Shown: piece after piece, positions 1 to 19,897 of the stretch
Numbering within the stretch: position 1 is the stretch's first letter
Layout of the letters: each line of letters starts with the position of its first letter
DNA from: Candidatus Multivorans thiocomprendens
GTDB taxonomy: Bacteria > Acidobacteriota > Thermoanaerobaculia > Multivoradales > Multivoraceae
Direction of reading: 5' to 3'
DNA: 64,000 nucleotides
Assembly (NCBI GenBank): GCA_027493375.1
Contig: JAPVWO010000059.1
Coordinates: 6,507-70,506, forward strand
Notes under the pieces: generated by a model
Databases searched by the model: none
The model's input: only the letters and a program-made list of their open reading frames with translations
What the model was told of the DNA's origin: nothing
Translations under genes and position numbers: made by a program

Positions 1-186
1 CCACAGAGGTTCGCCGACCTGGAGTGGCGTCATCGCCTCGGCCAGAAAGGCGAAGGCGTCCACGAAGCTGCTCTTGCCCGAGCCGTTCCTGCTGGCGAGA
101 AACATCGGATTGGCGAGGACCACCTCTTCGGAAGACGGGCTCCGGGAGCGGTGAAGAAGAAGCCGATTCAAGACCGGGCCCGTCAT
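1..186 (-). CDS. P-loop ATPase, N-terminal fragment; the gene continues beyond the window edge
   Basis: Reverse-strand ATG at 184-186, 4 nt downstream of the methyltransferase stop. Translation MTGPVLNRLLLHRSRSPSSEEVVLANPMFLASRNGSGKSSFVDAFAFLAEAM contains a Walker A motif (NGSGKSS) of the AAA_15/OLD-like 'GxNGSGKS' kind. Confidence 0.5.
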   Translation of the reverse strand, partial: MTGPVLNRLLLHRSRSPSSEEVVLANPMFLASRNGSGKSSFVDAFAFLAEAMTPLQVGEPLW

Positions 187-190
187 GGGG

Positions 191-3160
191 TCACCTTGGC
201 ACCGCCAGCAGCATGGCGTCGAGGAGCCGTTTCTCGGTTGAGCCGCGAGGGTAGAGGGCCGAGAGGGCGTTGGCGAGACGCAGGAAGTAGGGGCCGCGCT
301 CTTGCTCCGCCTCGATCAGGCGGCGCAACGCATTCGCGTGGCCGTTTGATTGGAGCAGCATGGCGGCGTGAACTCGGTCGAGTGTCGTGGCGCCTGCCGG
401 GTCGAGGGCCGGGTCCGCGTCCAGCCGGACTTGCCTTCTGCGGCCGCTGCCGGCATTTCGGCGACCCCGCCGAGATACCTGCGGAGCAGCCGCTTCTGGG
501 AACAAGACCTGTTGAAGACTCCCGATCGGGTCGCGCTCGATGACGACCGCGGCTTTAGCGGTGCCGTCATCGCCGAAGAGTTCGCGCGCCCGCTCCGTAA
601 CCGGTAGCAGGCGTACGACGCCCTTCTTCTGGACGACGATGCGGCCCGTCCAGGCACCAAGGTCGATGCCCATCGGCTGGGCGAAACGGCGGACGACATC
701 AAATGGAAGGCTGAAGCCTTTAGAAGCGGCCTTGGCGACGGTAGCGCGGGCGTGTACTTGCTTCCTTAGGGCCTCATCTGTCGGGTCAGTAAGCTGCACG
801 GTCCAGAGGAAGAGTGCGGTCAACCGGGCGTCCTCTTCCAGATTCCGGGCGAACTCCTCGCGACCGACCTCACTACCGTGCTTGAGCACCTGCCTCAACG
901 CCGCTCTCGCGACCTCCTCCCAGACCTTCTCGAGATACTCCGGTAGGCCCACAGTGGAACCCTCCGCGGTTTCGACCCGCCCGTACCGACTGAAGATCTC
1001 GAGCGCGGGGCCGATGCAAGAGAAGACCAGATCCGCGCCGCGGACGCCTTCCCCCTGTAGGCGTTTCATGGAGTCGGCGACGCGAACGGGCAACTCGCGT
1101 AGGACATCGGCCCAATCGCCAGCAGGGCTACCTATAGCACGTGGTCGGCAGACGAGATGCACACTTGTCGCCAGAGCCGCCGAGTCTCGAGCCCGGATGC
1201 GATGAGGCATCTCCGTTGCTATGGGCCACGACGCGGTAATCGTCCAGCCACCGCCAATCATCCCGGAGAGAAAGGCCTCCCAGCCTTCTGTTGTCTGATG
1301 CGCGAACACGACCGCGCCGATACCGTTCCCCTGTAGAATGCGCCTGCCTTCGATAAACGACTGCTCCATCGCTCGGTTGAAGAACAGCGCATCTTTGGGA
1401 CGACCGTCAACGGCTTTCGAAGAGTCTTGAACCGCCTCTTGGCGCTTTGGAGAGAGAGGATTGTCAGGGTCAAAGGAGTCTCGCAGCAGAGGATGCCCCG
1501 GCAAACTTCGCTTTAGCCAGACCAAGAACGCGTCAGCGAGGTCAGCGTAGGGAATGGCGTCATAGTATGGCGGATCCGTGAAGAAAAGAGATGCCGAGTT
1601 GTCTGGAAGTGGGGACCGTTGAGCCATGGCTTGACTTGCCTGGCCGACGCGTGGGGGAGCCACGTCAGCGGAGCGGATGCCGGCACGAAGGTTGGCTGTA
1701 CACTTCTCCAGCGACCCACTTGATTGGCTTAGCGGGCACGCCTCCACGAAGTCCCAACTCATCTTCAATCTTCCCAGTTTGAGAACTGCTGAGGGACATT
1801 CTTGGCCAGGCATCCAGGAGCAAAGGCTGTTTCCGAGGTCAACTAGCTTGCCAATCGCCAAGGCCGAAGCGTCGATGGAGCGCTGGTCGACAGTGGCGGT
1901 CGCTAGAGCCAAGGCAGAGTGGGCTACTGCTTGCCGAGCCGTGAACAAGTCGGACCAACGGCGCATCCCGTACCGTTGAACACGGAAACCAAGAGTGCCG
2001 ATTGGCGGTAGTGGTTCGTCAGGCACCGGGCACAGGCCCTGTCTTCCACCGGAGTCCCAATCGTCTCGGATGGCCGAAAGCAGCATCTGGGACCGAAAGA
2101 CCGGGGCGTAGTCGGCCTCTGTCGGTTCTCTGTAGAGCCTGCCGGGCTTGCCAGACTTGAGTGTGACCACCGCGAGCAGTCGCGCCCCACTGGTCCGCCC
2201 GCCTTCGGAATCGAAAGCCGGGTCGGCTCCGCCGCGCTGAGCGACGAGCTGTGCCTTCACCCGTTCCGGGGACAGGACGCTGGGACAACACAAGCACGAC
2301 GCCTTGGCGCGCGTAATGTTGGCGCGGCGCACGTCGCCTTCGGCCTGCGGCTCGAAAATCTCGAACTCGACCTGCGGCGGCTGTCCCGAAAGGCGTCTAG
2401 TCCGCGGACGCAGGGCTCGCCTGCGGTTGGGCTTCTTGCATAGCCAGAATGAACGCAAGAGCGGAAGCTCGGCGCCGCAGTCAGGCGCTTCGCAGCGCAC
2501 GGTGCGGGCCCAGAGATAGGCGATCGGTTCTGCACCATCCGGGTCGGCTGGATAGAGGTCGGCGAGCTTCTGTGTGGCTTGTTCCTGGATCTCCGACCCC
2601 AAGCGGCGAAGGGTGCCGGTTAGGCCGGGTCCGTGCCGCGGAAGGTCCTCCAGAATGACCTTTAGGATGAGGCATGCCACTGGGTTCAGATCGCTGGCGA
2701 AAGCGTCGCAGCCGAGCCGCAGGGCCTCTAGGGGTATTGAACCGCCGCCGGCGAAGGGGTCTACGACGAGCGGGGCACGTTCGCCGTGAGCCGCAAGCAG
2801 TAGGTTCCGGGCGACCCGAACGTAGGTCGGTTCCCCTGCCATGTCCCAGTTCGCGAAGGCTCCGATGAACCAAAGAAGAGCCTTCTTGGTCTCCTCGTCG
2901 TCGGTGGGCGGCTGCCGCACCTCCTTGAGGATTCCACGCGCCTGCTGTTTGAAAGCCTCGGGACAAAGAGGATCGCAAGGGTCCGGCAGTAGCAGGGCCA
3001 TCAGCATCGCCCGGGACGACGCCAATGGCCGTCGCGCCCACCACAGGTGGATCGTCGACGGATGTCCGTGCCGGATCGACTTCTCGCGCACTGCGTGCCG
3101 CGAGACCTCGGCGATCGGGAAGTCGACCTCAGCGAGGCGCTTGCACTCGCGGGGGATCAA
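191..3160 (-). CDS. DUF1156-family DNA methyltransferase, N6-adenine/N4-cytosine class, 989 aa, probably TTG start
   Basis: N-terminus MIPRECKRLAEVDFPIAEVSRHAVREKSIRHGHPSTIHLWWARRP is the DUF1156 signature. Motif I VVDPFAGGGSIP and motif IV FFTDPPYYD are both visible. The start overlaps the stop of the upstream small ORF (TTGA). Confidence 0.8.
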   Translation of the reverse strand: MIPRECKRLAEVDFPIAEVSRHAVREKSIRHGHPSTIHLWWARRPLASSRAMLMALLLPDPCDPLCPEAFKQQARGILKEVRQPPTDDEETKKALLWFIGAFANWDMAGEPTYVRVARNLLLAAHGERAPLVVDPFAGGGSIPLEALRLGCDAFASDLNPVACLILKVILEDLPRHGPGLTGTLRRLGSEIQEQATQKLADLYPADPDGAEPIAYLWARTVRCEAPDCGAELPLLRSFWLCKKPNRRRALRPRTRRLSGQPPQVEFEIFEPQAEGDVRRANITRAKASCLCCPSVLSPERVKAQLVAQRGGADPAFDSEGGRTSGARLLAVVTLKSGKPGRLYREPTEADYAPVFRSQMLLSAIRDDWDSGGRQGLCPVPDEPLPPIGTLGFRVQRYGMRRWSDLFTARQAVAHSALALATATVDQRSIDASALAIGKLVDLGNSLCSWMPGQECPSAVLKLGRLKMSWDFVEACPLSQSSGSLEKCTANLRAGIRSADVAPPRVGQASQAMAQRSPLPDNSASLFFTDPPYYDAIPYADLADAFLVWLKRSLPGHPLLRDSFDPDNPLSPKRQEAVQDSSKAVDGRPKDALFFNRAMEQSFIEGRRILQGNGIGAVVFAHQTTEGWEAFLSGMIGGGWTITASWPIATEMPHRIRARDSAALATSVHLVCRPRAIGSPAGDWADVLRELPVRVADSMKRLQGEGVRGADLVFSCIGPALEIFSRYGRVETAEGSTVGLPEYLEKVWEEVARAALRQVLKHGSEVGREEFARNLEEDARLTALFLWTVQLTDPTDEALRKQVHARATVAKAASKGFSLPFDVVRRFAQPMGIDLGAWTGRIVVQKKGVVRLLPVTERARELFGDDGTAKAAVVIERDPIGSLQQVLFPEAAAPQVSRRGRRNAGSGRRRQVRLDADPALDPAGATTLDRVHAAMLLQSNGHANALRRLIEAEQERGPYFLRLANALSALYPRGSTEKRLLDAMLLAVPR

Positions 3161-3354
3161 AGGCGTTCCTCGACCCAGCGAACGACGCTCCTGGAAAGCT
3201 GGAGGTGTTCGAGAAGTACGCCCTGCTGGCGCGGCCCCGTCTCGCCCCGCGCCGCCGAGCCGAACAGGATGATCTTGTCCGGTTCGGCGACCTCGACTAT
3301 GCGCCTGACGATCTCGTTCGACGTTCCCTGATCGACTGTGGGTCCCTGGTTCAT
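3157..3354 (-). CDS. Small translationally coupled ORF (65 aa) with a degenerate minimal-nucleotidyltransferase (MNT-like) motif
   Basis: Its ATG overlaps the DUF262 gene stop (ATGA) and its TGA overlaps the methyltransferase TTG start (TTGA). Sequence IVRRIVEVAEPDKIILFGSAARGE matches the NTase hG[GS] strand, but the downstream catalytic DxD is replaced (GVLLEH). Confidence 0.4.
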   Translation of the reverse strand: MNQGPTVDQGTSNEIVRRIVEVAEPDKIILFGSAARGETGPRQQGVLLEHLQLSRSVVRWVEERL

Positions 3355-5465
3355 GTGGAGCGTCCCCACCGGCGGCCGACGTAGGCGACGGCCTCGTTCA
3401 CGGGCAGCGCCTTGGTCGCGTTGCCGCTGCGCACGTAGAACAGCGCTTGGTTGGGATGTTCTACGTAGATCGGATGATCGCTCGGTTCCACGGTAACCTG
3501 ACAGACATCTTCACCGTCGATTTCGTGGAAGTTGACCGTCAGGAAGGACGCCGCCGCGGCTTCACCCAGATCCCGTTCCACGACTTGGCGGAGGTGGAGC
3601 TCAAGACCGTCGCGGTCCGGTTTCTTTAGAGTGCCGTAGTCGGTGCCTACTCCGACCGGCAGACCGGCATCGTCAACGCCGATCAGCAGCGTTCCGCCGT
3701 CGGCGTTCAGGAACCCGGCGATCGTCTTGACCACGGTGCCTTCGAGCGCCTTGTTGACTCGTTCTTCCCGGCGGTCCCAGCGGAGGCTCGACTTGAACTC
3801 GACCAGTTCGTTCTCTCCTTCGGCCAGCAGGCGCCGGGCGCCCTGTTCGTCGATGGCATCCGGATCGGTGTCCGGTATCCAGCTCGCGATGAAGTCGTTC
3901 ATCGCCTGGGCCAGAAGGCGGCGCCGCTCGGCGAGAAAGGCGAGGAAGTTCTCGGTCGTCCAGAGTTCCCGGTTCAGCGGAATCGACTGGGCCTGGAGCG
4001 CCCCGGGTTGAAGCGTCTCGATCTCCGGCAGGTACTCGGTAGGCGGCAGGTTGCGCCGGTCCTTGGGCGGCTTGGTGCCGAGTGCGGCCCGGTTACCCAC
4101 GGCGTTGATTCGGGCGTTGTCGTCGAACCCGTGCTGCCGGAGCAGCTTGCCGGGGAAGATGTAGTGCCGTTCCTCCTTCTGGCTTGCTGCGGTCGCACTG
4201 TCGAAGATCGGAATACCCGTGAACCAGTCCCGTGCGCCCCGGGAGCGCGCAACGACCCGGCTCAGCCGGGCCACGGCGGAGTTGATCCCCGCCCGCTCGA
4301 GATCGGCCGCTTCCAAGGTGGTTCTTCCGCGTTCGCGGAGGATGGCTGCTTCGAGTTCGTGCGTTGGGTCGAGGTCCTTGCCCGTTACCAGGGCGACATC
4401 CTGCTGGAGTTTCGTCTCGCTGGCCCCGGAGTAGCGGGTCCACAGGCCGGCAAGGTGAACCCAGCGAATGAACCGGTGCCGGATCGCCTCGCTGGGAAAG
4501 CGCCCGCCTTGCCCGGCGAGGTAGACGGTGGCCGGCACCAGCACGTAGTTCGTCGCCAAGTCCCCCAGGCCGCGAACGAACGTCTCGTGACGCAGGACGC
4601 TCGCCAGATGCTCGAAGGCCGGCTGCATTCTCTTCCACGCGCTCTGCAGTTCGTCGGGCGGCGTCCTCAGGAATACTCCTTCGAGCAACACCGAACCGGT
4701 TGCTACGCCCGCCAGACAGCGCACCAGGAAGTTCAGGTCGACTCCGAATCCGCGTTCCCCCATCTTCGCGCTGAAGGCTCGCAGTTCTCCGCGGGCCTCG
4801 GGCCACAGGCCGCAAATGTGGGCAAGAGCGAGGTCGGCCTTGGTCAGGGGCGTGCCCTTGCTGTTGACGCGGTTGAAGATGTCGACGACCTCGTCGACAG
4901 TGAATTCGTCTCCGGAGACCTCGTCTACGGTGTAGGTGTAGTCGCGGACCTTGTCCAGGCGTCCCAACCGGGCGAGGTTGCTCTGGAAGACCGCGCGCCG
5001 CTCCATCTCCAGCTCCTCGATCCGTTCGAGCAGGCCGGTAAGACCCTCCTTCAGGAACTCGTGGACGCCGATCCAGGCCGGGTCGTTCTGCATTCGCGAC
5101 CGTTGCCAGAACCTGAACTCCTCGGTTTGGACGTTGAAGTACAGGTCAAAGAAGAGGGACTCGCCTTCGTAGAAGTCGGGTGCTTCGCCAGCGAAGAGCA
5201 CGTACAGGGTGGTCAGCCGCTGCTGGCCGTCGAGGAGCAGGAGCGTGTGGCCGTCGCGGGGCGGTGCGGCGCCTCGTACTAGCGAGGGCTTGTACGTGCT
5301 CCAGATGAGCAGATGTCCGGTCGGGTGTCTGCGATACAGGGAGTGCAGAAGGCTCCGAACCTGGTTCCGATTCCACACATAGCCGCGCTGGAACTCGGGC
5401 AGCAGGATCTCGCCGCGGCGGATCTGGTTCAACAGTTCCGATATCGATCTCGTCTGGTGCATCAC
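3351..5465 (-). CDS. DUF262 (ParB/GmrS-like NTPase) - DUF1524 (HNH/His-Me nuclease, GmrD-like) - C-terminal Schlafen/AlbA_2 domain fusion protein, 704 aa
   Basis: N-terminus ELLNQIRRGEILLPEFQRGYVWN plus DGQQRLTTL is the DUF262 signature. A mid-region EERHYIFP...N...GN...N fits DUF1524. The C-terminus ELVEFKSSL...TIAGFLNADGGTLLIGVDD matches AlbA_2/SLFN-like. GTG start overlaps the SNF2 gene stop (GTGA). Confidence 0.8.
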   Translation of the reverse strand: MMHQTRSISELLNQIRRGEILLPEFQRGYVWNRNQVRSLLHSLYRRHPTGHLLIWSTYKPSLVRGAAPPRDGHTLLLLDGQQRLTTLYVLFAGEAPDFYEGESLFFDLYFNVQTEEFRFWQRSRMQNDPAWIGVHEFLKEGLTGLLERIEELEMERRAVFQSNLARLGRLDKVRDYTYTVDEVSGDEFTVDEVVDIFNRVNSKGTPLTKADLALAHICGLWPEARGELRAFSAKMGERGFGVDLNFLVRCLAGVATGSVLLEGVFLRTPPDELQSAWKRMQPAFEHLASVLRHETFVRGLGDLATNYVLVPATVYLAGQGGRFPSEAIRHRFIRWVHLAGLWTRYSGASETKLQQDVALVTGKDLDPTHELEAAILRERGRTTLEAADLERAGINSAVARLSRVVARSRGARDWFTGIPIFDSATAASQKEERHYIFPGKLLRQHGFDDNARINAVGNRAALGTKPPKDRRNLPPTEYLPEIETLQPGALQAQSIPLNRELWTTENFLAFLAERRRLLAQAMNDFIASWIPDTDPDAIDEQGARRLLAEGENELVEFKSSLRWDRREERVNKALEGTVVKTIAGFLNADGGTLLIGVDDAGLPVGVGTDYGTLKKPDRDGLELHLRQVVERDLGEAAAASFLTVNFHEIDGEDVCQVTVEPSDHPIYVEHPNQALFYVRSGNATKALPVNEAVAYVGRRWGRST

Positions 5466-8400
5466 ATGGTTCCTGTCGGATCGGTCTGGCGCAGTGCGTC
5501 AACATCCAAATGGTAGTGCGCCACCTTCGTGACGTCGCGCCACGGAAACCGGGCGGGATCGTGAACCGGTTCCTGTAGCTGGGGAGTCTTCGCGCAGTCG
5601 GTGACCACGTAGAGCCAGTAGCAGTCCCGCCGATCCTCGGCGACGCGCCGCTCGTTCGGTGTAAGCAGGACACTCCCCTTCGTGCCGGCAAGACCCTTGA
5701 TCTCGATCAGGCGGAGTTCACCGGATTCCAGGTCGAGGCTGGTGATGTCGTAGCCGAGATTCTGCTGGTGAACGTCCTCGACGTGGCGGCCCCGCGCCTT
5801 CTCGTGTTCGATGACGATCTGCATGGCGGTCATTTCGGTCTCGGGGTGGGGGCGGAGATTCCTGAGGTCGGGCGCGTTCCTGTCGGGGTGGGGCAGGATG
5901 AGCGCGCTCGCCAGGCGTTCCACCGCCTGCAGGGTCACGGCTCGCTGCCGGTCGAGTTCGTCGCGGCGTTGGTCTCGTCGGGCCAGCAGTTCGGCATGGC
6001 GGTTCTCGGCCCGGGCCAGACGGCCCTGGGCGCCTTGCACGTCTTGCTGCGTCTCCTGGGCCGCATGGCCGATCTCGTCGTCGGTCCGCTGGATGGCGGC
6101 GGTCAGCGAGAGGCCGACGTGCTCGGCGATCCGCTCGACTTCTTCGAGGCGTTCGTCCCGGACTTCGCGCAGGAACGGACGGAGCGCGTTCTCGTCCAGC
6201 CAGGCGGTTGCCTCCGGGAGGAATGCCGCTGCGGGGAGTGGTTCCGGGGAAGAAGCAGGCGTCAGGTTGCCGAGCGCGTCCGGAGCCCGAAGCCGAGGGG
6301 GACCGTCTGGTTGGAGTTCCAGGGCGAACAGCCGCTCATGGATCACCTTGCCGAGGCCGTCCACGACGCGGGCTCGATAGAAGTCGAGGCGCGCCGGCGC
6401 CTCGTGGGCGATGGAGTGGAAGCACGCGCCCCGGGCGAGGGAGTCCTGGCCCTGGTCGAGGCTGTGCAGCCGCAGGGCCTCGAAGAGCGGGTGGCCGGGC
6501 GTAACCCACTCGAGGCTGTGCTGTTCCGCCGTGTGGCGGTCAGTGGACAGGCGCGGATAGCGTGCCGCCAGCTCGGGCCGCCTCCAACTGGGCCGGCGCT
6601 CGTACTTCTTGAGGTCGAGGGGCGTGCGCCCGGGGTCGAAGCCGTGAGGCAGGTTGGTGACAGGCCTGAGCCGGAGGTTCGCGTTGCTCGCCGTCTCGCC
6701 GATGAACCGCGCGATCGTCTCCGGGACCACGCGGCGCTCCCGCGCCCTGGCCTGACGTTCGACGAGCATGTCGAGATTGAGCTTCCTGGACGCGAGGCCT
6801 TCGAGCGCCGTCTGACAGATGTCGCGGAAGCGGCCCTCGTCCACGTTCCTCAGGAGCCGGTCTTCGAGGTCGGCATCCCCGAGCTTCCCGGCGTAGTAGT
6901 CGCGCAGCGTCCGCTCGACCTGGGCCGACGGCAGAATCTCGCCGACCACGTTAAACACCGCGTCGTCGTCGAGCGCGTCGCGGATCTTCTGGAGCTTCTG
7001 AAGCAGCCGTTGGAGCACCCGGCCTTCGATCGTATTCGTGGCCACGAAGTTGAAGATCAGGCAGTCGTGCTTCTGTCCATAGCGGTGGATGCGGCCCATT
7101 CGCTGTTCGAGCCGGTTCGGATTCCAGGGAATGTCGTAGTTGAAGAGGATGTGGCAGCACTGCAGGTTGATGCCTTCGCCGGCCGCTTCGGTGGCGACCA
7201 GGACCTGGATTGCACCTTCGCGGAACTGCTGTTCGGTGTAGAGCCGCGTCCCTGGTTCGTCGCGGGACCCCGGCTTCATGCTGCCGTGGATGCAGCCGGC
7301 GCTGAAGCCCCAGGTTCTCAGGTGACCGAGGAGGTGATCCAGGGTGTCCTTGAACTCGGTGAAGATCAGTAGGCGTTGGTCGGGCCGGTCGAAGAACCCC
7401 TCGTCCCGCAGCACCTGTCTGAGGTGCCCCAGCTTCGCCTCGTTCCCGGCGCCTTCGACCGCCGCCGCTTCTTCGGCCAGTTGGCGAAGTTCGTCGATCT
7501 CCTCGCCCACCTGCTCGGCGTTGCCGGTCAGCGTGATCGCTTCGAGCAGCCGCTCCAGTTCCTCGCGTGCGGCGTCCTCGAACTCTTCGAGTTCCTCGGC
7601 CGTAGGGAGAATCGGGGGCGCTGCCACGACGATGTCCTCCGCTTCCGTGAGCGCCTTCTCCAGGCGCGTGGCGCGGTTCTCGAGTGAACGCCGCATGGCG
7701 TAGGTGCTCGAGGCGAGACGCCTCTGGTAGAGAGCCATCAGGAAGCCGACGGCGCGCGCCCTGGGGTCGTCGCCGCGGGCCGCGGCGAGGCGGCTCTGCC
7801 GCTTCACGAACCGTGTCACGCGGTCGTAGAGGTCAAACTCCGGGCCGTCGATGGCGAAGTCGGCTGTGCGCGGGATTCGCTTCGTGAACACCGGTTTCGC
7901 CGCCCATGAGCCGTCCTCCTGCCGGTCGGGGAAGTAGACCATGGCCTCCTTGGTGCGGCGGAGATAGAAGGGGGCCCTGCGTTGGTTCATGGCGGCTCGA
8001 ATCGACGTTACGTCGGCGTAGACGTCCCGATCGAGTAACTGAAGGAACAGGCTGAAGTTCTTCGGATCGCCCTTGTGCGGCGTCGCGGTCAGCAGCAGGA
8101 TGTGGTCCGCGCGGTCGCGGAGCAGTTCTCCCAGCTTGTAGCGGAGGCTCTTGTGGCTCTCGTCCCGCGCCGACATGCGGTGCGCCTCGTCGACGATCAC
8201 GAGGTCCCAGTGAACCTGTTCGAGTCCGGGCAGGATCTCGTCGCGCTTCGCCAGATCGAGCGACGTGATGATCTGGTTCCGCTCCATCCATTGGTTGACG
8301 CCGAACTGGTCGCGGATGTCGCTGCCCTTGAGGACGATGAACTTCTCGTCGAACTTCTCGCTCAGTTCGCGCTGCCATTGGAACGTCAGGTTCGCCGGGC

Positions 8401-8872
8401 AGACGACCAGGACGCGCTCGACGAGTCCGCGGAGCTTGAGTTCACGAAGCAAGAGCCCCGCCATGATCGTCTTGCCGGCACCCGCGTCGTCGGCGAGCAG
8501 GAACCGCACGCTCGGCAGCTTGAGAAGGTGGTCGTAGACGGCCTCCAATTGGTGAGGCAGCGGATCGACCCGGGAGGTCGACAGGCCGAAGTAGGGGTCG
8601 AACTCGTAGGCGATGCCCAGCGCGTAGGCCTGAAGCCCCAGGCGCAGCAACCGTCCATCGCCGTTGTAGGAGAGAGACGCGTCGGCCACGTCGAGCCTGG
8701 CGATGTCGTCCGGCGTTAGCGTGACTCGGCGGAACCGCTCGCTTTGTTGGCCGACTAGGCCGGCTACCCACACGCCGGGACCGTTCGGCCGGACGGTTTC
8801 GACCCGCATCGGCTCGCTGAACAGCGGACCGGTCAGAACTTGTCCTTCGCGGATGGCGGCCTCGGTTTTCAA
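5462..8872 (-). CDS. SNF2-family helicase (DEAH box plus helicase-C) with a C-terminal DUF3883 restriction-endonuclease-like domain, 1136 aa, TTG start
   Basis: Motifs LLADDAGAGKT (Walker A), VIVDEAH (DEAH), and helicase-C ...VATEAAGEGINLQ...QRMGRIHRYGQ. The C-terminus ...GYDITSLDL...LIEIKG...YWLYVV resembles DUF3883. Confidence 0.85.
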   Translation of the reverse strand: MKTEAAIREGQVLTGPLFSEPMRVETVRPNGPGVWVAGLVGQQSERFRRVTLTPDDIARLDVADASLSYNGDGRLLRLGLQAYALGIAYEFDPYFGLSTSRVDPLPHQLEAVYDHLLKLPSVRFLLADDAGAGKTIMAGLLLRELKLRGLVERVLVVCPANLTFQWQRELSEKFDEKFIVLKGSDIRDQFGVNQWMERNQIITSLDLAKRDEILPGLEQVHWDLVIVDEAHRMSARDESHKSLRYKLGELLRDRADHILLLTATPHKGDPKNFSLFLQLLDRDVYADVTSIRAAMNQRRAPFYLRRTKEAMVYFPDRQEDGSWAAKPVFTKRIPRTADFAIDGPEFDLYDRVTRFVKRQSRLAAARGDDPRARAVGFLMALYQRRLASSTYAMRRSLENRATRLEKALTEAEDIVVAAPPILPTAEELEEFEDAAREELERLLEAITLTGNAEQVGEEIDELRQLAEEAAAVEGAGNEAKLGHLRQVLRDEGFFDRPDQRLLIFTEFKDTLDHLLGHLRTWGFSAGCIHGSMKPGSRDEPGTRLYTEQQFREGAIQVLVATEAAGEGINLQCCHILFNYDIPWNPNRLEQRMGRIHRYGQKHDCLIFNFVATNTIEGRVLQRLLQKLQKIRDALDDDAVFNVVGEILPSAQVERTLRDYYAGKLGDADLEDRLLRNVDEGRFRDICQTALEGLASRKLNLDMLVERQARARERRVVPETIARFIGETASNANLRLRPVTNLPHGFDPGRTPLDLKKYERRPSWRRPELAARYPRLSTDRHTAEQHSLEWVTPGHPLFEALRLHSLDQGQDSLARGACFHSIAHEAPARLDFYRARVVDGLGKVIHERLFALELQPDGPPRLRAPDALGNLTPASSPEPLPAAAFLPEATAWLDENALRPFLREVRDERLEEVERIAEHVGLSLTAAIQRTDDEIGHAAQETQQDVQGAQGRLARAENRHAELLARRDQRRDELDRQRAVTLQAVERLASALILPHPDRNAPDLRNLRPHPETEMTAMQIVIEHEKARGRHVEDVHQQNLGYDITSLDLESGELRLIEIKGLAGTKGSVLLTPNERRVAEDRRDCYWLYVVTDCAKTPQLQEPVHDPARFPWRDVTKVAHYHLDVDALRQTDPTGTM

Positions 8873-9025
8873 TGTGTTGAGTAGTCCTGGATGCGCGACC
8901 TTGGACCAGCCTCGAACGAGAGGCGACTGCTTCTCAAGGACGACGGCAGAAGATAGGCGGTGGCGAATGTGGCGTCAATGGTCTGACTGGCCTGACGGCG
9001 TAGATCGCGCAAGGTCTGTTCCCGG

Positions 9026-10954
9026 CTACTCCCGCGGCCGCAGGACCCGCCGCCGGTCGCCCTCCCGCCGCGTCAGCCGCTGCCGGTCCAGGTGCTCGAG
9101 CAGCGGAATCGCCCACTTGCGGGTCAGGCCGAAGCGGTCCTTGAAGTCGGCGACGGTGAACGTGTCCCAGCCGGTGGCGAGAAGGTCGGCCTGAAACCGT
9201 TCCAGGGCGGACGCTGCGAGGAGGAGGCCGCTGGGCAGCCGGACCAGCTTGCCGCGCTCCACCAGGTAGCGGAGCACGCCGTCGAAGACCTGGGGCTTGG
9301 CCCCCAGGGTGCGGCAGAGCTCCTCGGGAGAGCCGGGGGTCAGTCCCTGTTCCTTGAAGCCTCCGACGATGTCCCGCGCCAGCCTGGACTCTGCGCCGGT
9401 CAGTTCGCTGGCGCGGCCCGGGAGAGTCACGAGTTCGCCGTCCGTGACGACGCTCAAGTCCTTGCCGCCGCGGCTCGACCAGTCCAGGTAGGCCGGGGCG
9501 AGGTCGGCGGCGCGCGCGCCCAGCAGCCGGCGGACGAGCTCGGCCTTCGGCATGCCGCGAGACAGGCGGTCGGCGGCGAAGTGCGCCTCGACGAGACGCC
9601 GGGCACGGCGTGTCACGCGACGGACGGTCGCCGCGGTGACGAAGCGGCCGCCGGCGCCCGCCTCGAGCAGCAGGCTCGCCTGAGCGGCGCCGTTCAGCAC
9701 CTCCCGGGCGTCGGCGGGGACGACGCCCAGGCGCAGGGCGAGTTCGGTCACGGCCAGACCGGCCTCGCGGCTGTCGGCGGCCCACTGCACGGCGGCGGCC
9801 TGCCGGTCGCCGGCGTCCAGCGCCTCGATCGTCGGCGCGAGAGCCTTGCCTCGAGGACGCCTCCAGGCCGGGTCGAGCACCGCGCCGCCGCCTAACGTTG
9901 TCTGGGGCGAGGGCCTGCGGATGACGAAGCGGTCGCCGCGAACCGCCACCAGGGGCTCGTCGAGCCGGATCTCCGCCAGCGCTTCCTGGCCCGGGACAAG
10001 CCGTTCGGTCTCGAGCGGCCGGAGCTTGCCGATCCGCTGCGCTGCGTTGACGTGAAGCCGCACCGGGCTGCTGCCGTCGAGCGGTTCGGGCGCCGTGGCG
10101 AGCAGCCGGCAGCGCACGAGCAGGGAAGTCGTGGCGCGGTAGACGGCGGGGGCGGTCAGTTCGTGGCCGCGGGCGACCTGCTCAAGATCGACGCCGACGA
10201 GCTGGAGCGACGTGCGCTCGCCGGCTTCCGCCTGCTGGCGGCGGTCGCCGTGGACCTCGATGCTGCGCACCCGGGCACGGCCGGCGGCGGGCAGGATATC
10301 CAGCTCATCGCCGACGCATACGGTCCCGCGGGCGAGCGTGCCGGTGACCAGCACGCCGAGTCCCCGCAGGTGAAAGGCCCGGTCGATCGGCAGCCGGGCG
10401 GGCAGACGGCGATAGCGGTCGATCGGGGCCGCCGACCTGGCGAGCTCCACCAGGGCCGCGCGGAGCTGCTCCAGGCCTTCGCCGCTCTGGGCCGACACCG
10501 GCAGGATCGGCGCGCCGGCGAACGGGGTGTCGGCCAGCGCCTCCTTGAGCTCCAGCTCGGCAAGCTCCACCAGGTCGGGCGACACGAGGTCCGTCTTCGA
10601 CAGCACCGCCAGGCCGGCCGGGATCCGGAGCAGCGAGCAGATCGCGAGGTGCTCCAGGGTCTGCGGCATGACCCCTTCGTCGGCGGCCACGACCAGCACC
10701 ATCATCTGGATGCCGCCGAGCCCTGCGAGGGCGTTGTGGACGAAGCGCTCGTGTCCGGGCACATCGACGAAGCCGATCTGCCAGCCGTCCTCGACCATCG
10801 AGGCGAAGCCGAGGTCGATCGTGATGCCGCGCTGCTTCTCCTCTTCCCAGCGGTCGCAGTCGACCCCGGTCAGGGCCTGGACCAGCCGTGTCTTGCCGTG
10901 ATCGACGTGGCCCGCGGTGCCGACGACGAACCGGTTGGCGGCTATCTCGCTCAC
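9026..10954 (-). CDS. selB: Selenocysteine-specific elongation factor SelB (GTG start overlapping the upstream regulator stop)
   Basis: GTAGHVDHGKTRLVQALTG...DLGFA GTPase motifs plus a long C-terminal winged-helix region. The ORF-track N-terminal extension has no start candidates; GTGA overlap at 10951-10954. Confidence 0.85.
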   Translation of the reverse strand: MSEIAANRFVVGTAGHVDHGKTRLVQALTGVDCDRWEEEKQRGITIDLGFASMVEDGWQIGFVDVPGHERFVHNALAGLGGIQMMVLVVAADEGVMPQTLEHLAICSLLRIPAGLAVLSKTDLVSPDLVELAELELKEALADTPFAGAPILPVSAQSGEGLEQLRAALVELARSAAPIDRYRRLPARLPIDRAFHLRGLGVLVTGTLARGTVCVGDELDILPAAGRARVRSIEVHGDRRQQAEAGERTSLQLVGVDLEQVARGHELTAPAVYRATTSLLVRCRLLATAPEPLDGSSPVRLHVNAAQRIGKLRPLETERLVPGQEALAEIRLDEPLVAVRGDRFVIRRPSPQTTLGGGAVLDPAWRRPRGKALAPTIEALDAGDRQAAAVQWAADSREAGLAVTELALRLGVVPADAREVLNGAAQASLLLEAGAGGRFVTAATVRRVTRRARRLVEAHFAADRLSRGMPKAELVRRLLGARAADLAPAYLDWSSRGGKDLSVVTDGELVTLPGRASELTGAESRLARDIVGGFKEQGLTPGSPEELCRTLGAKPQVFDGVLRYLVERGKLVRLPSGLLLAASALERFQADLLATGWDTFTVADFKDRFGLTRKWAIPLLEHLDRQRLTRREGDRRRVLRPRE

Positions 10955-12318
10955 GAACCGCGTTCGGGGTCGATGCCGTAGGCCTGGAGCTTGCGGTACA
11001 GGTGGCGGCGGTCGACTCCGAGGTCCCGGGCGGTCTGGGAGACGTTGCCGCCGGCGGCGCCGAGCCGGCGCTCGATGTAGAGCCGCTCGAAGGTCTCGCG
11101 GGCCTCCTTGAGCGAGGCGTAGTCGTTGCCCACCTGGGCGATCGCGTCCGCCCCGCGTACCCGAGGCGGCAGGTCCCCTTCCATGACCACGTCGCCGGGC
11201 GCCATGATCATCAGGCGTTCGCTCAGGTTGCGGAGTTCCCGCACGTTCCCCGGCCACGAGTAGGCGACCAGCCGTTCGAGCGCCCGGGGGTCGACCGTCT
11301 TCGGACGGCGGCCGGCCTCGGCGGCGAAGCGTTCGAGGAAGTGGTCGATCAGGGCCGGGATGTCCCGGCGCCGCTCGCGAAGGGCCGGCACGTGGAGCGG
11401 AATGACGGCGAGCCGGAAGTAGAGGTCCTCGCGGAACCGGCCGGCGGGGAGTTCGTCCTCTTCCAGGTTCTTGTTCGTCGCCGCCAGCACCCGCACGTCA
11501 ACGTCGATCGGCTCGGAACCTCCCACCCGCTCGAACCGTTGCTCCTCCAGCACGCGCAGCACCTTGGCCTGAGTGTTCAGCGACATGTCGGCGATCTCGT
11601 CCAGAAACAGGGTGCCTCCGTCGGCCTGTTCGAACCGTCCGCGGCGGTTCTCCGAGGCGCCGGTGAAGGCGCCCTTGATGTGCCCGAAGAGCTCGCTCTC
11701 GATGAGTTCCTCCGGGATCGCGGCGCAGTTCACTTCGACGAAGGCGCGGCTCCTGCGCTGGGAGAGGCCGTGGATGCGTCTCGCGACGAGCTCCTTGCCC
11801 GTGCCGTTCTCGCCGGTGATCAGGATCCGGCTCTCGGCGCGCGCCGAGAGCTTCAACTCGTCCTTCAATTGCCGCATGGACGGCGAGTCGCCGATGAGCT
11901 GCCGCTCGGGATCGAGCCGGTTCGACAGTTCCCGCACCTCGCGTTCGAGACGTTTCCGCTCCAGGGCGTTCTCGACCGACACGACGACCCGGTTGAGCGC
12001 CAGCGGCTTCTCCAGGAAGTCGTGCGCGCCGATGCGCATCGCCTTGACCGCCGTGTCGATGTTGCCGTGGCCGGAGATGACGATGACCGGCGTCTGGAAG
12101 TCGCCCTCGCGGAGTTCCTCCAGGATCTCCAGGCCGTCGCGGTCGGGCAGCCAGACGTCGAGCAGGACGAGGTCGAACTCGTCGCTCGCCATCAGCGCCT
12201 GGCCGCTCACCGCGTCCGCCGCCGCCGCCACCGAGTGGCCTTCGTCCTCGAGGATGTCCCGCAGGGTCTGGCGGATGCCGGCCTCGTCGTCGACGATCAG
12301 AATGCGCGCCTTGCTCAT
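10951..12318 (-). CDS. Sigma-54-dependent response regulator (NtrC/NtrX family)
   Basis: REC domain (ILIVDDE...D), AAA+ sigma-54 interaction domain (GENGTGKELVAR, GAFTGA), C-terminal Fis-type HTH. Confidence 0.85.
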   Translation of the reverse strand: MSKARILIVDDEAGIRQTLRDILEDEGHSVAAAADAVSGQALMASDEFDLVLLDVWLPDRDGLEILEELREGDFQTPVIVISGHGNIDTAVKAMRIGAHDFLEKPLALNRVVVSVENALERKRLEREVRELSNRLDPERQLIGDSPSMRQLKDELKLSARAESRILITGENGTGKELVARRIHGLSQRRSRAFVEVNCAAIPEELIESELFGHIKGAFTGASENRRGRFEQADGGTLFLDEIADMSLNTQAKVLRVLEEQRFERVGGSEPIDVDVRVLAATNKNLEEDELPAGRFREDLYFRLAVIPLHVPALRERRRDIPALIDHFLERFAAEAGRRPKTVDPRALERLVAYSWPGNVRELRNLSERLMIMAPGDVVMEGDLPPRVRGADAIAQVGNDYASLKEARETFERLYIERRLGAAGGNVSQTARDLGVDRRHLYRKLQAYGIDPERGS

Positions 12319-12342
12319 CGTTGGATGCCGGTGAGCGCGGTT

Positions 12343-14616
12343 CTACCGCTGCGCCTCGGACTGGGGCAGTTCGGACTGGGGTAACTCGATGGTGAAGGTC
12401 GTGCCGCGAGGCTCGTTGTCCTCGACCCGGATCGAGCCGTTGTGGTCGCTGACGATGCGCTGGACGATGGCCAGGCCCAGCCCAGAACCCCGTCCCTTGG
12501 TCGAAAAGTAGGGCAGGAAGAGTTTCTCGCGGGCTCCCTTCGGCACACCGCTGCCCGTGTCCCTGACCGAGAGGTCGAGGACCCCGTTGCCGCGGCCGGC
12601 CCGGACCGTCACCTGGCCGGGCGGGTTGGTGGCGGCGATGGCGTTGTCCAGCAGGTTGACCAGGGCGGAGCGCATCTGGTCGGCGTCGAGCTTGGCGTGG
12701 AGACCCTCCTTGCCGGCCTCGATGCGCGCCTCGATCTCGACGCCGGGTTTCAGCTCGCGGTAGAGGTCGACCGTTTCGCTGATGAGCTTCGCCATGTCGA
12801 CATCGCGGGGCTGGGGGCGCCGCATGCGGGCGTAGCGCGCGAACTGGTCCACGAGGTTCTGCATGTTGCCGACCTCGCGGACGACGATCTGCGCTCCCTC
12901 CTCGACCGCGGCGCCGAGGCTCGCGTCGTTGCTCTGCGCCTTGCGCAGCAGTCGCTCCGCGGCCAGCTTGATCGGAGTCAGCGGGTTCTTGATCTCGTGG
13001 GCGATCCGGCGCGCGGCTTCCGTCCAGGTGGCGGCCTTCTGGGCGTCGAGCAGCGCGGTCAGATCCTCGATCACGAGGACGTGGCCGAGCAGCTCGAAGC
13101 CGCCGCTGCCGTCCGGCGCGCGCAACGGGCTGGTCTTGACCTCGAGAGTCTTCCAGTCGTCCCTGCCGCCGAGGCTGACTTCGCGGCGGGCCGGGGTCGC
13201 CCCCGAGCGCCGCGGGCCGGTCGCCCCCCGGACCGTCGAATCCGGCAGATCGGCGAACACGGCCTCGACGCCCTTGTCCGGGAGCAGCTCGCTCAGGGCC
13301 TCGGGCGGCGCGCCGGCGAGCGAAACGTGCGATGGAAGCCCCAGCATCTCCACCGCGGCACGGTTGCACGTCAGGATACGGCCGTCACGATCGAGCGAGA
13401 GCACGCCGGCCGGCCCGCTCTCCAGCACCGCTTCGATGCGGGCGCGCTCGGCGTCCAGGCGGCGGTTCGTCGCCACCAGGTCCCGGTTCGATTCCTGCAG
13501 CGCGTCGGTCATCCGGTTGAAGGAGTCGACCAGGATCTGGACCTCGTCGTCGGCGGCTGCCTCGACCCGGTGTTCCAGGTCGCCGCCGGCGATGCGCCGG
13601 GTGCCGTCCGCCAGCGCTTCGATCGGGCCGGTGACCCGGCCGGCGAGGTAGAGACCGACCCAGCAGGAGACGAGCAGAATGCACAGGGTCACGGTCAGGA
13701 AGAGGAGCCAGTACGCGGCCCGGATCTCGTCGCGTTGGGCGTGCAGTTGCCGCCGGGACTGGTAGGCGGCGATCAGGGTCTCCGTGCTGCCGGCGAGCTC
13801 GGCATCGAGCAGCCTGCCGGCGACGGCCACGGTGGTCTCGGCGCCGCCTTCCCGGGCCGCCGCGGCGAGGATGAGTCGCTCCTCGCTGCCGGACACTTCG
13901 CCGATGGCCCGGGCGGCGCCGGTGCGGACCGCTTCGAGCAGCATGCCGCGGGTCGGCTCGGGTACCTCGGAAAGAGCCTGGGGATTCACTGTGGCCTGGA
14001 GGAAGGTGGTGTTCCGGTAGACCGCCAGGTAGTCGAGGTCGGCTTCGGAACGGGCCTCGCCGAGCGCCCCCAGCAGCCGGCCGCGCCCGCGCGGACTATC
14101 CAGGTCCAGGCTCCCGGTGTCGGTGAGAAAGCGTTCGGCGTCGCGCAGCAATTCGTCCTGCCGGGTCGAGGTCAGGGCCTGGGAGACCTGGTTGGCCGGT
14201 TCCAGCAGGTCGTCGATGTCGGTCCGGAACATGCGGTCGATCGAGCCCTGGAGCAGTTCCGTGGCGTAGGCGAACAGGACGAGTCCGGGGATCAGCGACA
14301 GGCCGATGTAGGTGAGGATCAGCTTCGTCCGGAACTTGGCGCCCAGACGCTGGCGCCGGCGCTCGATCCACAGCTTGGTCAGGTTGCGGACGAGCACGAA
14401 GGCGACGACCAGGATCAGCACCACGTTCAGATTGCGCAGCGCGAACAGCAGGATGCTGTTGTTGAGCACCGTGGGGTCGATCTCGCGGCCGCGCTGGAGC
14501 GCGTAGTAGCCCGCAGTCGGTACGGCGAGGGAGAGCGCCAGGAGCCAGACCAGGAAGCGGTTGGTCTTGATGAGTTCGCGCAGGGGCGGGCGGCTCGCGG
14601 TCAGGCGTTGGATCAC
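12343..14616 (-). CDS. Sensor histidine kinase, NtrY-like (TM-HAMP-PAS-HisKA-HATPase)
   Basis: N-terminal transmembrane segments, H-box IAHEIKNPLTPI, C-terminal HATPase G-boxes (GSGLGLAIV). Confidence 0.85.
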   Translation of the reverse strand: MIQRLTASRPPLRELIKTNRFLVWLLALSLAVPTAGYYALQRGREIDPTVLNNSILLFALRNLNVVLILVVAFVLVRNLTKLWIERRRQRLGAKFRTKLILTYIGLSLIPGLVLFAYATELLQGSIDRMFRTDIDDLLEPANQVSQALTSTRQDELLRDAERFLTDTGSLDLDSPRGRGRLLGALGEARSEADLDYLAVYRNTTFLQATVNPQALSEVPEPTRGMLLEAVRTGAARAIGEVSGSEERLILAAAAREGGAETTVAVAGRLLDAELAGSTETLIAAYQSRRQLHAQRDEIRAAYWLLFLTVTLCILLVSCWVGLYLAGRVTGPIEALADGTRRIAGGDLEHRVEAAADDEVQILVDSFNRMTDALQESNRDLVATNRRLDAERARIEAVLESGPAGVLSLDRDGRILTCNRAAVEMLGLPSHVSLAGAPPEALSELLPDKGVEAVFADLPDSTVRGATGPRRSGATPARREVSLGGRDDWKTLEVKTSPLRAPDGSGGFELLGHVLVIEDLTALLDAQKAATWTEAARRIAHEIKNPLTPIKLAAERLLRKAQSNDASLGAAVEEGAQIVVREVGNMQNLVDQFARYARMRRPQPRDVDMAKLISETVDLYRELKPGVEIEARIEAGKEGLHAKLDADQMRSALVNLLDNAIAATNPPGQVTVRAGRGNGVLDLSVRDTGSGVPKGAREKLFLPYFSTKGRGSGLGLAIVQRIVSDHNGSIRVEDNEPRGTTFTIELPQSELPQSEAQR

Positions 14617-15227
14617 TCGGCCTCCCCGCTGCCGATCCGGCGCTGGGCGGACGGGAAGGGCGTCGTCTGGGCCCAGGCGGTGTGGACCCGGTCCGGAATC
14701 AGGCCGAGCCGGGTTCGGGTCCGGACTTCGGCGCGCACTCGCAGCACGAGTCGCCCCGGCGGTTCATCGACGAGCTCTACCGACGGCAGTCGCTCGAAGG
14801 TCGTCAGCGCTCGCTCCAGGTCCTCCGGCGAGATCACGACCCGGCTGGCGTAGAGCTCCCCGTCGCGCTTGAAGTTGACGAGGTACTCACGGGTGAGGGC
14901 GTTGTACATCGCCACGACCTGCAACCGGGTGGCGGCGACGGCCTTGTCGAACCAGCGCCGCCTGATCCGCCGGACCTGGATGTCGTAGGTGAAGCCGGTC
15001 GGCAGTCCGCTCTCGATCTTCTCCCAGGTGCGTTCGTCAAGCGCCCGGTCCAGGCGGAAGCTGACCAGCAGCACCGGACCCTCGCGCACGGCGGAGAGTG
15101 CGGTGATGGCGGCTTTGGCGGACCGGCCGGAGGCTTCTCGCGGAGGCTGTGCCGCGAGTGCGTCGCCGCCCAGAACGCTCGACAGGCTGAGCGCGCAGAT
15201 CAGCCGTCCCGCCCGCGGGACTCTCAT
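14613..15227 (-). CDS. DUF4390-family periplasmic protein (signal peptide)
   Basis: The position just upstream of the NtrY-like kinase is typical; secreted about 200 aa; LVSFRLD...TYDIQVRR pattern. Confidence 0.55.
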   Translation of the reverse strand: MRVPRAGRLICALSLSSVLGGDALAAQPPREASGRSAKAAITALSAVREGPVLLVSFRLDRALDERTWEKIESGLPTGFTYDIQVRRIRRRWFDKAVAATRLQVVAMYNALTREYLVNFKRDGELYASRVVISPEDLERALTTFERLPSVELVDEPPGRLVLRVRAEVRTRTRLGLIPDRVHTAWAQTTPFPSAQRRIGSGEAE

Positions 15228-15282
15228 GGCGTGACCCTACCAGTCCGCGGCGTACCTGCGCCCCGCGGGAGGATCGAGGCGG

Positions 15283-16281: not shown

Positions 16282-16515
16282 CGAACAGGTGTTTCAGCAC
16301 GGATCGTGCCAGCCCGGCGATGGTCTTCGCTCCTTTGCAAGTTCCTTGTTTTTCGGGGATTTACGTCGGTGTCCGGGACTCGTCGGTGATCCGGTATGTG
16401 GCGTTTACGCCACACCTCTGTGGCGCTTCGGCCGCATCGCGACCGCCTGCGTCGGGGCGTCCGCGGAGAGTAGACTCACTCGGCAAGATGTACCGAACGC
16501 CGGAAACGAACACCG

Positions 16516-17037
16516 ATGGCCAGGCGCAGCAAACAGAAGCAGCGGTCGCTCGCGGGCGGGAACGCTCTGGCGGTCAATCGAAAGGCCCGGCGGGAGTATC
16601 GCGTCCTGGAACGGCTGGAGGCCGGCATCGAGCTCCTGGGCACCGAGGTCAAGTCGATCAGGGGCGGCAAGATCCAGCTACGCGACAGCTACGTGGCCTT
16701 TCGTGACCACGAGGCCTGGCTGCTGGACGCTCACGTTTCGGCGTACAGCCACGGGAACCGGGAGAACCACGATCTCGAGCGGCCCAGGCGGCTGCTCCTG
16801 AATCGGCGCGAGATCGACCGCCTGTTCGGGCGTACCCGCGACCGGGGCCTGACGGTGGTGCCGCTGTCCGTCTACCTGAAAGGGAACCGGATCAAGGTCG
16901 AGCTGGCCCTGGCCGAAGGCAGGAAGTTGCACGACAAGCGCGAACGGGAACGGGAGCGGACCCTCGACCGCGAGGCCGGCGAGGTGTTCCGCGGCCGGCG
17001 GCGCATGCGGTCGGACGCGCCGGAGGAAACGCGGTGA
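16516..17037 (+). CDS. smpB: SsrA-binding protein SmpB
   Basis: VKSIRGGK...LRDSY...LLNRREI motifs. Confidence 0.9.
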
Positions 17038-19895: not shown

Positions 19896-19897
19896 GC

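Follow-up and report, generated by a model that had tools for sequence, protein, structure and literature searches.

We analysed a stretch of 64,000 nucleotides from contig JAPVWO010000059.1 (assembly GCA_027493375.1, positions 6,507 to 70,506) of Candidatus Multivorans thiocomprendens, a member of the Acidobacteriota; this whole stretch is called the window below, and positions are counted from its first letter. Near its left end, between genes of a Hma (helicase-methylase-ATPase) defence system, lies a gene whose product joins a DUF262 nucleoside triphosphatase (NTPase) domain, a divergent DUF1524-type His-Me domain and a C-terminal AlbA_2/Schlafen domain (Table 1). An initial annotation, made from the sequence alone, had proposed this three-part layout on a single open reading frame (ORF), and as homology the layout holds. 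The minus strand carries one unbroken frame for 704 amino acids, with a GC content of 0.68, 0.43 and 0.82 at the three codon positions in surrounding DNA of 65% GC, and we judge the ORF to be a genuine gene because this pattern is typical of one. Translation can start at GTG (5465) or ATG (5462), of which the ATG is more likely; most homologues begin at the second Met of the window protein, and the NCBI annotation of the identical protein is 11 residues shorter. An antisense ORF of 424 amino acids (4008..5282, plus strand) was rejected as a GC-rich shadow, since its codon-position GC of 0.83, 0.44 and 0.68 mirrors that of the real gene. A 100% identical protein (P0001) is encoded in an Acidobacteriota metagenome-assembled genome (MAG).

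Table 1. Features of the fusion gene and its neighbours in the window (pLDDT, predicted local distance difference test; aa, amino acids).
Feature	Position	Strand	Residues	Description and evidence
hmaA	5462..8872	-		SNF2-type helicase with NOV_C/DUF3883 C-terminus; PADLOC HmaA (6e-166), Pfam
Fusion gene	3351..5465	-		704 aa; BrxU/HEC-05-like GmrSD-family core with C-terminal Schlafen domain; ORF list, Pfam, PADLOC
DUF262/GmrSD_N NTPase domain	4815..5444	-	8-217	PF03235, E 2.3e-31
Alpha-helical linker domain	4236..4814	-	218-410	Equivalent of the BrxU linker; profile alignment
Divergent DUF1524-type His-Me (ββα-Me) domain	3876..4235	-	411-530	Profile alignment to BrxU 7P9K, motif alignments
Interdomain linker	3822..3875	-	531-548	pLDDT below 50 at residues 533-537
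Schlafen (SLFN_AlbA_2) RNase-type domain	3354..3821	-	549-704	PF04326, Foldseek
Small ORF	3157..3369	-		5' stump of an MNT nucleotidyltransferase gene; 65-70 aa (65 from ATG at 3354); overlaps fusion gene stop and hmaB start
hmaB	191..3160	-		DUF1156 DNA methyltransferase of Hma; PADLOC HmaB (1.2e-96), PF06634 (8e-21)

The N-terminal domain is a DUF262 NTPase domain, as had been annotated. PF03235 matches above its curated Pfam cut-off, and the NTPase motifs are intact: PEFQRGYVW (residues 23-31), S42 and DGQQR (residues 79-83; nucleotides 5217..5231). DGQQR and FQR are conserved at about 100% in 201 relatives, and among 140 close relatives that have the fused architecture DGQQR does not vary; the counts out of 140 below refer to this set. 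The linker that follows is all-helical in the AlphaFold2 model (block pLDDT 53-93, mostly above 70). The best PADLOC model was HEC-05 (PDLC04151), which aligned residues 72-526 with model positions 111-593 of 600 (E 2e-37), and three more HEC-05 models matched at 8.5e-21 to 2.1e-7. A family profile built from an alignment of 49 diverse relatives (A2) matched BrxU (PDB 7P9K) with an E value of 5.4e-50, from profile positions 4-526 to chain residues 7-580. BrxU was also the top Foldseek match of the AlphaFold2 model (7p9k_A, E 5.3e-10), which has a mean pLDDT of 70.7, with a poor stretch at residues 1-210 and mostly good confidence over residues ~230-704. Whole-protein phmmer against the PDB matched BrxU weakly and in the N-terminal half only, and identity to BrxU in the structural alignment is about 18-19%. 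Judged by homology, residues 1-530 are a complete BrxU-type core across DUF262, linker and His-Me domain.

An SspE-like reading of the core, which had been part of the initial annotation, was rejected, as the window protein resembles SspE at short N-terminal stretches only. PADLOC SspE models matched at 2e-5 to 6e-4, the 2e-5 match covering residues 4-42, and the A2 profile matched SspE (PDB 6JIV) at 1e-4 over 21 profile positions. As a separate observation on the core, the relatives P0164, P0174, P0181, P0198 and P0180 (780-973 amino acids) match the window protein over residues 8-528 only and bear other C-terminal extensions of 250-450 amino acids without a Pfam match. It seems that the BrxU-like chassis can be combined with various modules at its C-terminus.

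The claim of a DUF1524 His-Me nuclease in the middle of the protein held in part: the homology was confirmed by the BrxU profile and by Foldseek, but a PF07510 match and the canonical catalytic residues were missing. Pfam gave no PF07510/DUF1524 match on the full protein, nor did residues 234-549 give one even at E ≤ 10, and 15 of the 49 diverse relatives match PF07510/GmrSD_C on their own (best E value 2e-6). Because the family profile aligns with BrxU from end to end, we assign residues 411-530 to a divergent DUF1524-type His-Me domain. Its AlphaFold2 model contains β432-435, β459-462 and α475-485 at a pLDDT of 79-94. The window protein has HYIFP (residues 434-438; nucleotides 4152..4166) where BrxU has DHIYP; the profile alignment places H434-Y435 on BrxU D474-H475, and the family consensus is h-H-I-F-p. 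N458 is retained, and P467 occupies the position of the distal Asn (family 'kaN'; BrxU N518/N519). In BrxU, either of the mutations D474A and H475A eliminates DNA cleavage as well as resistance to phages, while N519A weakens defence only and the protein still cuts DNA in vitro (PMC8565348), so that a missing distal Asn does not by itself settle the matter. Among the close fused relatives, position 435 is His in 72, Tyr in 55 and Arg, Leu, Ser or Phe in the rest, and the distal Asn is kept in 11 of 140. The catalytic His-Me site of the window protein is therefore non-canonical by its residues and looks dead, and the idea that the partner of the Schlafen domain is a type-IV-like nuclease is weakened, as Y435 replaces the His that is essential in BrxU.

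Mean pairwise identity was calculated for each segment in the clade of the window protein (n=44 sequences) and in unfused relatives of about 530 amino acids. It amounts to 78% in the clade versus 33% in the unfused relatives for the DUF262 segment, 74% versus 23% for the linker and 51% versus 38% for the ββα core (residues 428-472); within the clade, the Schlafen segment reaches 68% and the interdomain loop 47%, the lowest value in the protein. The ββα core is thus the most conserved segment among the unfused relatives; in the clade, no structured segment is less conserved, and the core is nearly as variable as the interdomain loop.

Unfused relatives stop at about residue 526-547. The region that follows in the window protein had been annotated as an AlbA_2/Schlafen fold, and both sequence and fold agree with this. 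PF04326 matches residues 551-687 with an E value of 2e-16 (9e-18 on the isolated tail) and 61 bits against a cut-off of 25.3; the match spans profile positions 1-117 of 118 and more than 100 amino acids. The peptide quoted in the initial annotation (ELVEFKSSLRWD...GGTLLIGVDD) was found in the protein, with GGTLLIGVDD at residues 590-599. As the annotation had suggested, the fold was also checked on an AlphaFold2 model, whose C-terminal domain retrieves the AlbA_2 protein DIP2311 (3LMM, 6.5e-4), human SLFN11, SLFN14, SLFN5 and SLFN12, rat SLFN13 and the DNA-binding/tRNase domain of SAMD9 by Foldseek. Phmmer with the Schlafen domain gave marginal SLFN matches (0.014 to 2) that are too weak alone; the same alignments put VEFK and GGTLLIGVDD on the C-lobe of SLFN11/13.

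The active site of prokaryotic Schlafens is Ex4(E/D)xK, which corresponds to the catalytic residues of SLFN11 (Perez Taboada et al., Nat Microbiol 2026, PMC13056530). Translation of the window gene places a motif of this catalytic type at E551-NELV-E556-F-K558 (nucleotides 3792..3815). E551, E556 and K558 are present in 140 of 140 close relatives, and 59-60 of the 61 distant fused cluster representatives (~97%) have the Ex4ExK residues. Since the motif is intact and invariant, it points to a ribonuclease (RNase) effector rather than a sensor, which speaks against the earlier view of the domain as an added sensing or targeting module. A catalytic RNase effector is the more likely role of this domain, compared with a mere binding module.

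Schlafen domains were also seen on other proteins. Plasmid CP157006.1 of Methylomonas sp. AM2-LC (L087, 3575..4480) encodes a protein of 301 amino acids whose C-terminal Schlafen domain is 50% identical to that of the window protein, EFKSSLRWD included; its N-terminal module is unrelated, with a hydrophobic, probably membrane-spanning N-terminal half. One Schlafen subtype is thus reused with different partners. Another locus (L086, 1..2269) encodes a type I restriction HsdR protein (HSDR_N, ResIII, SWI2_SNF2) with a C-terminal SLFN_AlbA_2 domain, directly upstream of a Hma locus that bears the DUF262-Schlafen fusion. With this HsdR, Schlafen is joined to a DNA-tracking restriction protein of a second kind.

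The fusion had been called unusual, which did not hold: the architecture is common and already published (PMC13056530). The best 120 matches in a search of 5.8 billion proteins are all about 700 amino acids long, contain PF03235 and PF04326 and are 66-100% identical. The Schlafen region is present in at least 61 of the best 150 cluster representatives (50% identity clusters), down to 27% full-length identity, and 19 of the 80 loci kept from species-representative genomes encode the full architecture. Altogether, hundreds of genomes have retained the fusion. The database search for the DUF262-DUF1524-AlbA_2 architecture that the initial annotation had suggested thus found it across many bacterial phyla and in haloarchaea. 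The bacterial hosts comprise Acidobacteriota, Gemmatimonadota, Gammaproteobacteria, Syntrophobacterales, Coriobacteriia and other Actinomycetota, Bipolaricaulota, Latescibacterota, Dehalococcoidia and Limisphaerales. Three plasmid or megaplasmid records carry copies, from Haloquadratum walsbyi (C23 plasmid), the halophilic archaeon DL31 and Sinorhizobium meliloti; among plasmids, a tblastn search gave no full-length homologue from Enterobacterales. Identities of 63-76% across phyla imply horizontal transfer.

One locus from a Longimicrobiales MAG (L014, 10001..15435) has the fusion gene in three pieces (residues 1-442, 430-564 and 566-702), parted by insertions of 1.4-1.9 kb. Its hmaA and hmaB are fragmented too, and the whole locus is in decay.

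The genes around the fusion gene follow the order selB (9026..11257), hmaA, fusion gene, small ORF and hmaB on the minus strand. For hmaB, the NCBIfam model DUF1156_antiphage matched at 1.6e-50, below the cut-off of the model. The stop codon of hmaA overlaps the start of the fusion gene (ATGTGATG), and the next two junctions overlap as well (ACATGA and CTTTGATC); as start and stop overlap at every junction, we regard the genes as one translationally coupled operon. The small ORF retains ILFGSAARGE, has lost the DxD motif and gave no match in Pfam. Searching with it by tblastn found intact MNT genes beside the fusion gene in four loci (L001, L003, L010, L083). Two of these have an intact MNT gene (108 amino acids) and a HEPN gene (131-132 amino acids) right after the fusion gene (L001, 12214..12922; L083, 11124..11835). 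With such intact neighbours, the fusion gene seems to travel with a HEPN-MNT module, which is truncated in the window.

Beyond the left edge of the window, the locus can be followed on a contig of an Acidobacteriota MAG (L081, GCA_028873735.1), which is 99.7% identical to window positions 1..11388 and encodes the identical protein. Window position 1 corresponds to L081 position 11388, and L081 11203..17337 extends past this edge. It contains HEC-01A and HEC-01B (AAA_21 ATPase, 1e-116, and DUF4276, 3e-59) as a second embedded cassette, followed by HmaC (DUF499, 1e-95) and a Drt4-type reverse transcriptase (2.5e-117). A 70-amino-acid ORF resembling the N-terminus of HEC-01A precedes the HEC-01A/HEC-01B cassette. 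By its gene content, the locus is a Hma system with two embedded cassettes. Embedding of genes has been described for 63% of Hma systems, and HEC-05 is a GmrSD-like gene that is frequently embedded in Hma, with a representative sharing 99.2% identity with BrxU (Payne et al., bioRxiv 10.1101/2024.01.29.577857). The fusion gene has the features of HEC-05, namely the match to its hidden Markov model and a position between hma genes on the same strand. Searches for the boundary of an island found no tRNA in window 1..20000 and no meaningful flanking repeats in L081, and a scan for promoters and terminators did no better than on shuffled sequences.

Another Hma locus has more embedded genes before its fusion gene (L084, 6701..8981; L086, 7109..8981): a DUF1016/YhcG nuclease-like protein, a 227-amino-acid protein without match and a free-standing NOV_C protein of 130 amino acids. 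An AAA_15/21 ATPase follows the fusion gene there, and a DUF433-PIN-DUF433 set lies between hmaB and hmaC.

We propose, with a probability of roughly 0.6, that the fusion gene encodes a self-contained anti-phage DUF262-Schlafen protein on a chassis of the BrxU/HEC-05 type, a passenger of Hma in which the chassis would sense infection and the Schlafen RNase would be the output. The DUF262 NTPase, the helical linker and the vestigial His-Me domain may together form a nucleotide-driven module for DNA binding or infection sensing, as in BrxU. Sensing would depend on nucleoside triphosphates (NTP) and possibly recognise phage DNA. An NTP-driven change in the oligomeric state of the chassis could then gate the RNase, either by releasing or by assembling the Schlafen domains. 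The output would no longer, or not mainly, be DNA cleavage, which may be lost or marginal in the window protein; instead, the C-terminal domain would cleave RNA, most likely tRNA, and thereby shut down translation in the infected cell. Known Schlafens offer precedents for these steps: RorSlfn5 and CbCash are trigger-activated prokaryotic Schlafen tRNases with fused domains that serve as sensors, and a ligand-driven oligomeric rearrangement exposes the catalytic residues of CbCash. SLFN11 is reported to bind single-stranded DNA and to act on tRNA as a dimeric nuclease whose two subunits hold one tRNA between them.

A more specific version of this proposal can be put forward tentatively, and we would not count on it. 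It holds that the BrxU-like type IV restriction chassis of the clade once cut DNA and has become a sensor of infection that is driven by NTP and serves a Schlafen tRNase, with the ATP-driven dimer-to-monomer cycle known from BrxU gating the assembly of a two-lobed Schlafen RNA-binding cleft. An effector swap would then be recorded in extant sequences, from unfused proteins over fused proteins with both sites to the clade of the window protein. If true, the protein would be a bacterial counterpart of DNA-activated SLFN11.

Several points weigh against our proposal. Confidence of the AlphaFold2 model is low across the N-terminal third of the protein. H434, F437, N458 and R459 are nearly invariant (H434 in 137 and N458 in 139 of 140 close relatives), which indicates that the His-Me fold is still under selection, and the domain might retain a non-canonical activity. 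Binding of nucleic acid without cleavage is known from some eukaryotic Schlafens. Among cluster representatives, 36 of 50 fused and 57 of 81 unfused proteins have retained both the canonical His and the canonical Asn. These last counts led us to reject a family-wide coupling of the Schlafen fusion with loss of the His-Me site: since fused and unfused proteins keep the site alike, its decay is specific to the clade of the window protein and not to the architecture. Judging from the conserved motifs, two nucleases are probably present in the majority of fused proteins, and replacement of the effector would be clade-specific.

The main rival is accordingly a dual nuclease, in which the His-Me domain is still an active DNase that uses H434 or another residue as general base, so that type IV restriction and RNA cleavage are combined. 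To the near-invariance of H434 and N458 and the residual DNA cutting by BrxU N519A, this explanation can add that most fused relatives outside the clade of the window protein keep a canonical ExHHIFP...N...N motif (36 of 50 representatives). From this motif, the ancestral fused protein probably had both activities, and dual-nuclease activity is, from the motifs, probably true for many relatives outside the clade. For the window protein itself we consider it unlikely. The equivalent of BrxU H475, whose mutation to Ala kills BrxU, is Tyr here, and H, Y, R, L, S and F all occur at this position across the clade. No other structured segment of the clade evolves as fast as the ββα core, and PF07510 found no match at E ≤ 10.

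A less probable explanation, that of the initial annotation, takes the AlbA_2/Schlafen domain as a non-catalytic nucleic-acid-binding module that targets or regulates a GmrSD-type nuclease. The AlbA_2 fold does bind DNA or RNA in several proteins, the fold neighbours of the window domain include DNA-bound SAMD9 and nucleic-acid-bound SLFN14, and some mammalian SLFNs are without the catalytic residues (PMC13462974). However, the Ex4ExK triad of the window protein is intact and invariant, the nuclease that such a module would serve is without its essential His, and published prokaryotic Schlafens with the same motif are active tRNases in which mutation of the motif kills defence.

The proposal of a self-contained protein further requires independence from Hma. 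Translational coupling with hmaA and hmaB and the position of the gene could also be read as a sign that the protein is a dependent Hma subunit, for example its effector. Of the 15 genome loci closest to that of the window (L001-L015), eight have the gene between hmaA and hmaB, and L082 and L084-86 likewise carry it inside Hma. The other seven closest loci (L001, L002, L003, L010, L011, L013, L015) encode homologues of 52-76% identity with no Hma genes nearby, and metabolic genes flank the fusion gene in L001. In L083, the same slot next to selB holds a fusion gene (76% protein identity) and MNT/HEPN genes that are intact, with hmaA reduced to scraps just upstream (amino acids 579-594 and 1088-1129). 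Judged from these remnants, Hma decayed in L083 while the embedded fusion gene was retained. Because it is retained without Hma both here and in the seven loci, we conclude that the gene would function independently. Archaeal and rhizobial plasmid copies exist as well, and independent function has been shown experimentally for HEC-05/BrxU, with HEC genes in general treated as independent embedded systems (Payne et al., bioRxiv 10.1101/2024.01.29.577857). Taken together, a dependent Hma subunit is very improbable. The remnants in L083 (8613..9001 and 13341..13421) also include hmaA amino acids 1-32, so that hmaA fragments lie around the intact fusion gene, and a second MNT fragment is located at 8668..8763.

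An assembly or sequencing artefact joining two genes can be dismissed, as the single-ORF architecture is common to the best 120 matches, to at least 61 clusters at 50% identity, to 19 of 80 genome loci and to three plasmid or megaplasmid records, and as an independent assembly with 99.7% identical DNA encodes the identical protein. Both objections foreseen in the initial annotation, such an artefact and a tail with no AlbA_2/SLFN similarity, therefore failed: the fusion is widely conserved and PF04326 is significant.

Among known systems, the self-contained DUF262-Schlafen protein proposed here is closest in class to pSlfn7. In a catalogue of 5,930 prokaryotic Schlafens, 1.8% are DUF262-Slfn proteins; one of them, EcoSlfn7 of E. 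coli UC4224, lowers plating of T7 about 540-fold and protects against other phages too (PMC13056530). This work gives no mechanism for the DUF262 class and mentions neither a BrxU-like linker nor a DUF1524-type domain, nor whether the catalytic residues of the latter are intact; a Schlafen fusion is not among the additional domains named in the 2015 GmrSD survey. At the sequence level, the window protein has what defines the class: a full-length PF04326 domain (>100 amino acids), Ex4(E/D)xK and the DUF262 fusion. With pSlfn7 it shares DUF262 joined to a PF04326 Schlafen domain with this motif in one polypeptide, sited among defence genes, a likeness to EcoSlfn7 that is drawn from description and class criteria. 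It differs in coming from an uncultured Acidobacteriota bacterium and in being embedded in Hma. The full-length homologues of the Haloquadratum walsbyi C23 plasmid and of Sinorhizobium meliloti would fall in the same class (PMC13056530).

BrxU and HEC-05 share with the window protein the 530-residue core, consisting of DUF262 with FQR, S42 and DGQQR, the helical linker and a His-Me domain with the xHIFP/N/N layout, and they are likewise embedded in larger defence loci (BREX, Hma). Compared with BrxU/HEC-05, the window protein has an extra Schlafen domain of 155 residues, and compared with BrxU, D474-H475 is changed to H434-Y435 and the distal Asn to Pro. Measured against the features of GmrSD/BrxU enzymes, PF03235 with FQR..W and DGQQR and full-length homology to BrxU were found, but a PF07510 match and the catalytic (D/E)-H with the distal Asn were not. 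SspE and the canonical GmrSD enzymes Eco94GmrSD and EcoCTGmrSD also combine, within a single chain, a DUF262 NTPase with a subsequent nuclease of the DUF1524 type; in contrast to the window protein they have no Schlafen domain, and their similarity to it is weak and N-terminal. RorSlfn5, with an immunoglobulin-like sensor, and CbCash, with a Csx15 sensor of cyclic tetra-adenylate (cA4), share a Schlafen RNase of the same motif fused to a separate sensor, and SLFN11 shares with our proposal the coupling of a DNA-binding NTPase-type domain to tRNA cleavage. The window protein differs from all three by a GmrSD/BrxU chassis N-terminal to the RNase and by a second, decaying nuclease domain.

DUF262-Schlafen fusions (a class reported in 2025-26) and BrxU-like genes inside Hma are thus already published. 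What our sequence comparisons add is that the fused DUF262 belongs to an entire enzyme of the BrxU type and that, in the clade of the window protein, the DNase site decays beside an invariant RNase site. For the DUF262-Slfn class, the protein offers a worked example for asking whether the GmrSD chassis senses, acts as co-effector or does both, and its family supplies natural variants with and without the canonical DNase site beside an ever-intact RNase site. The locus with a decayed Hma system and an intact passenger (L083) shows by example that defence genes embedded in a larger system can persist after that system has decayed.

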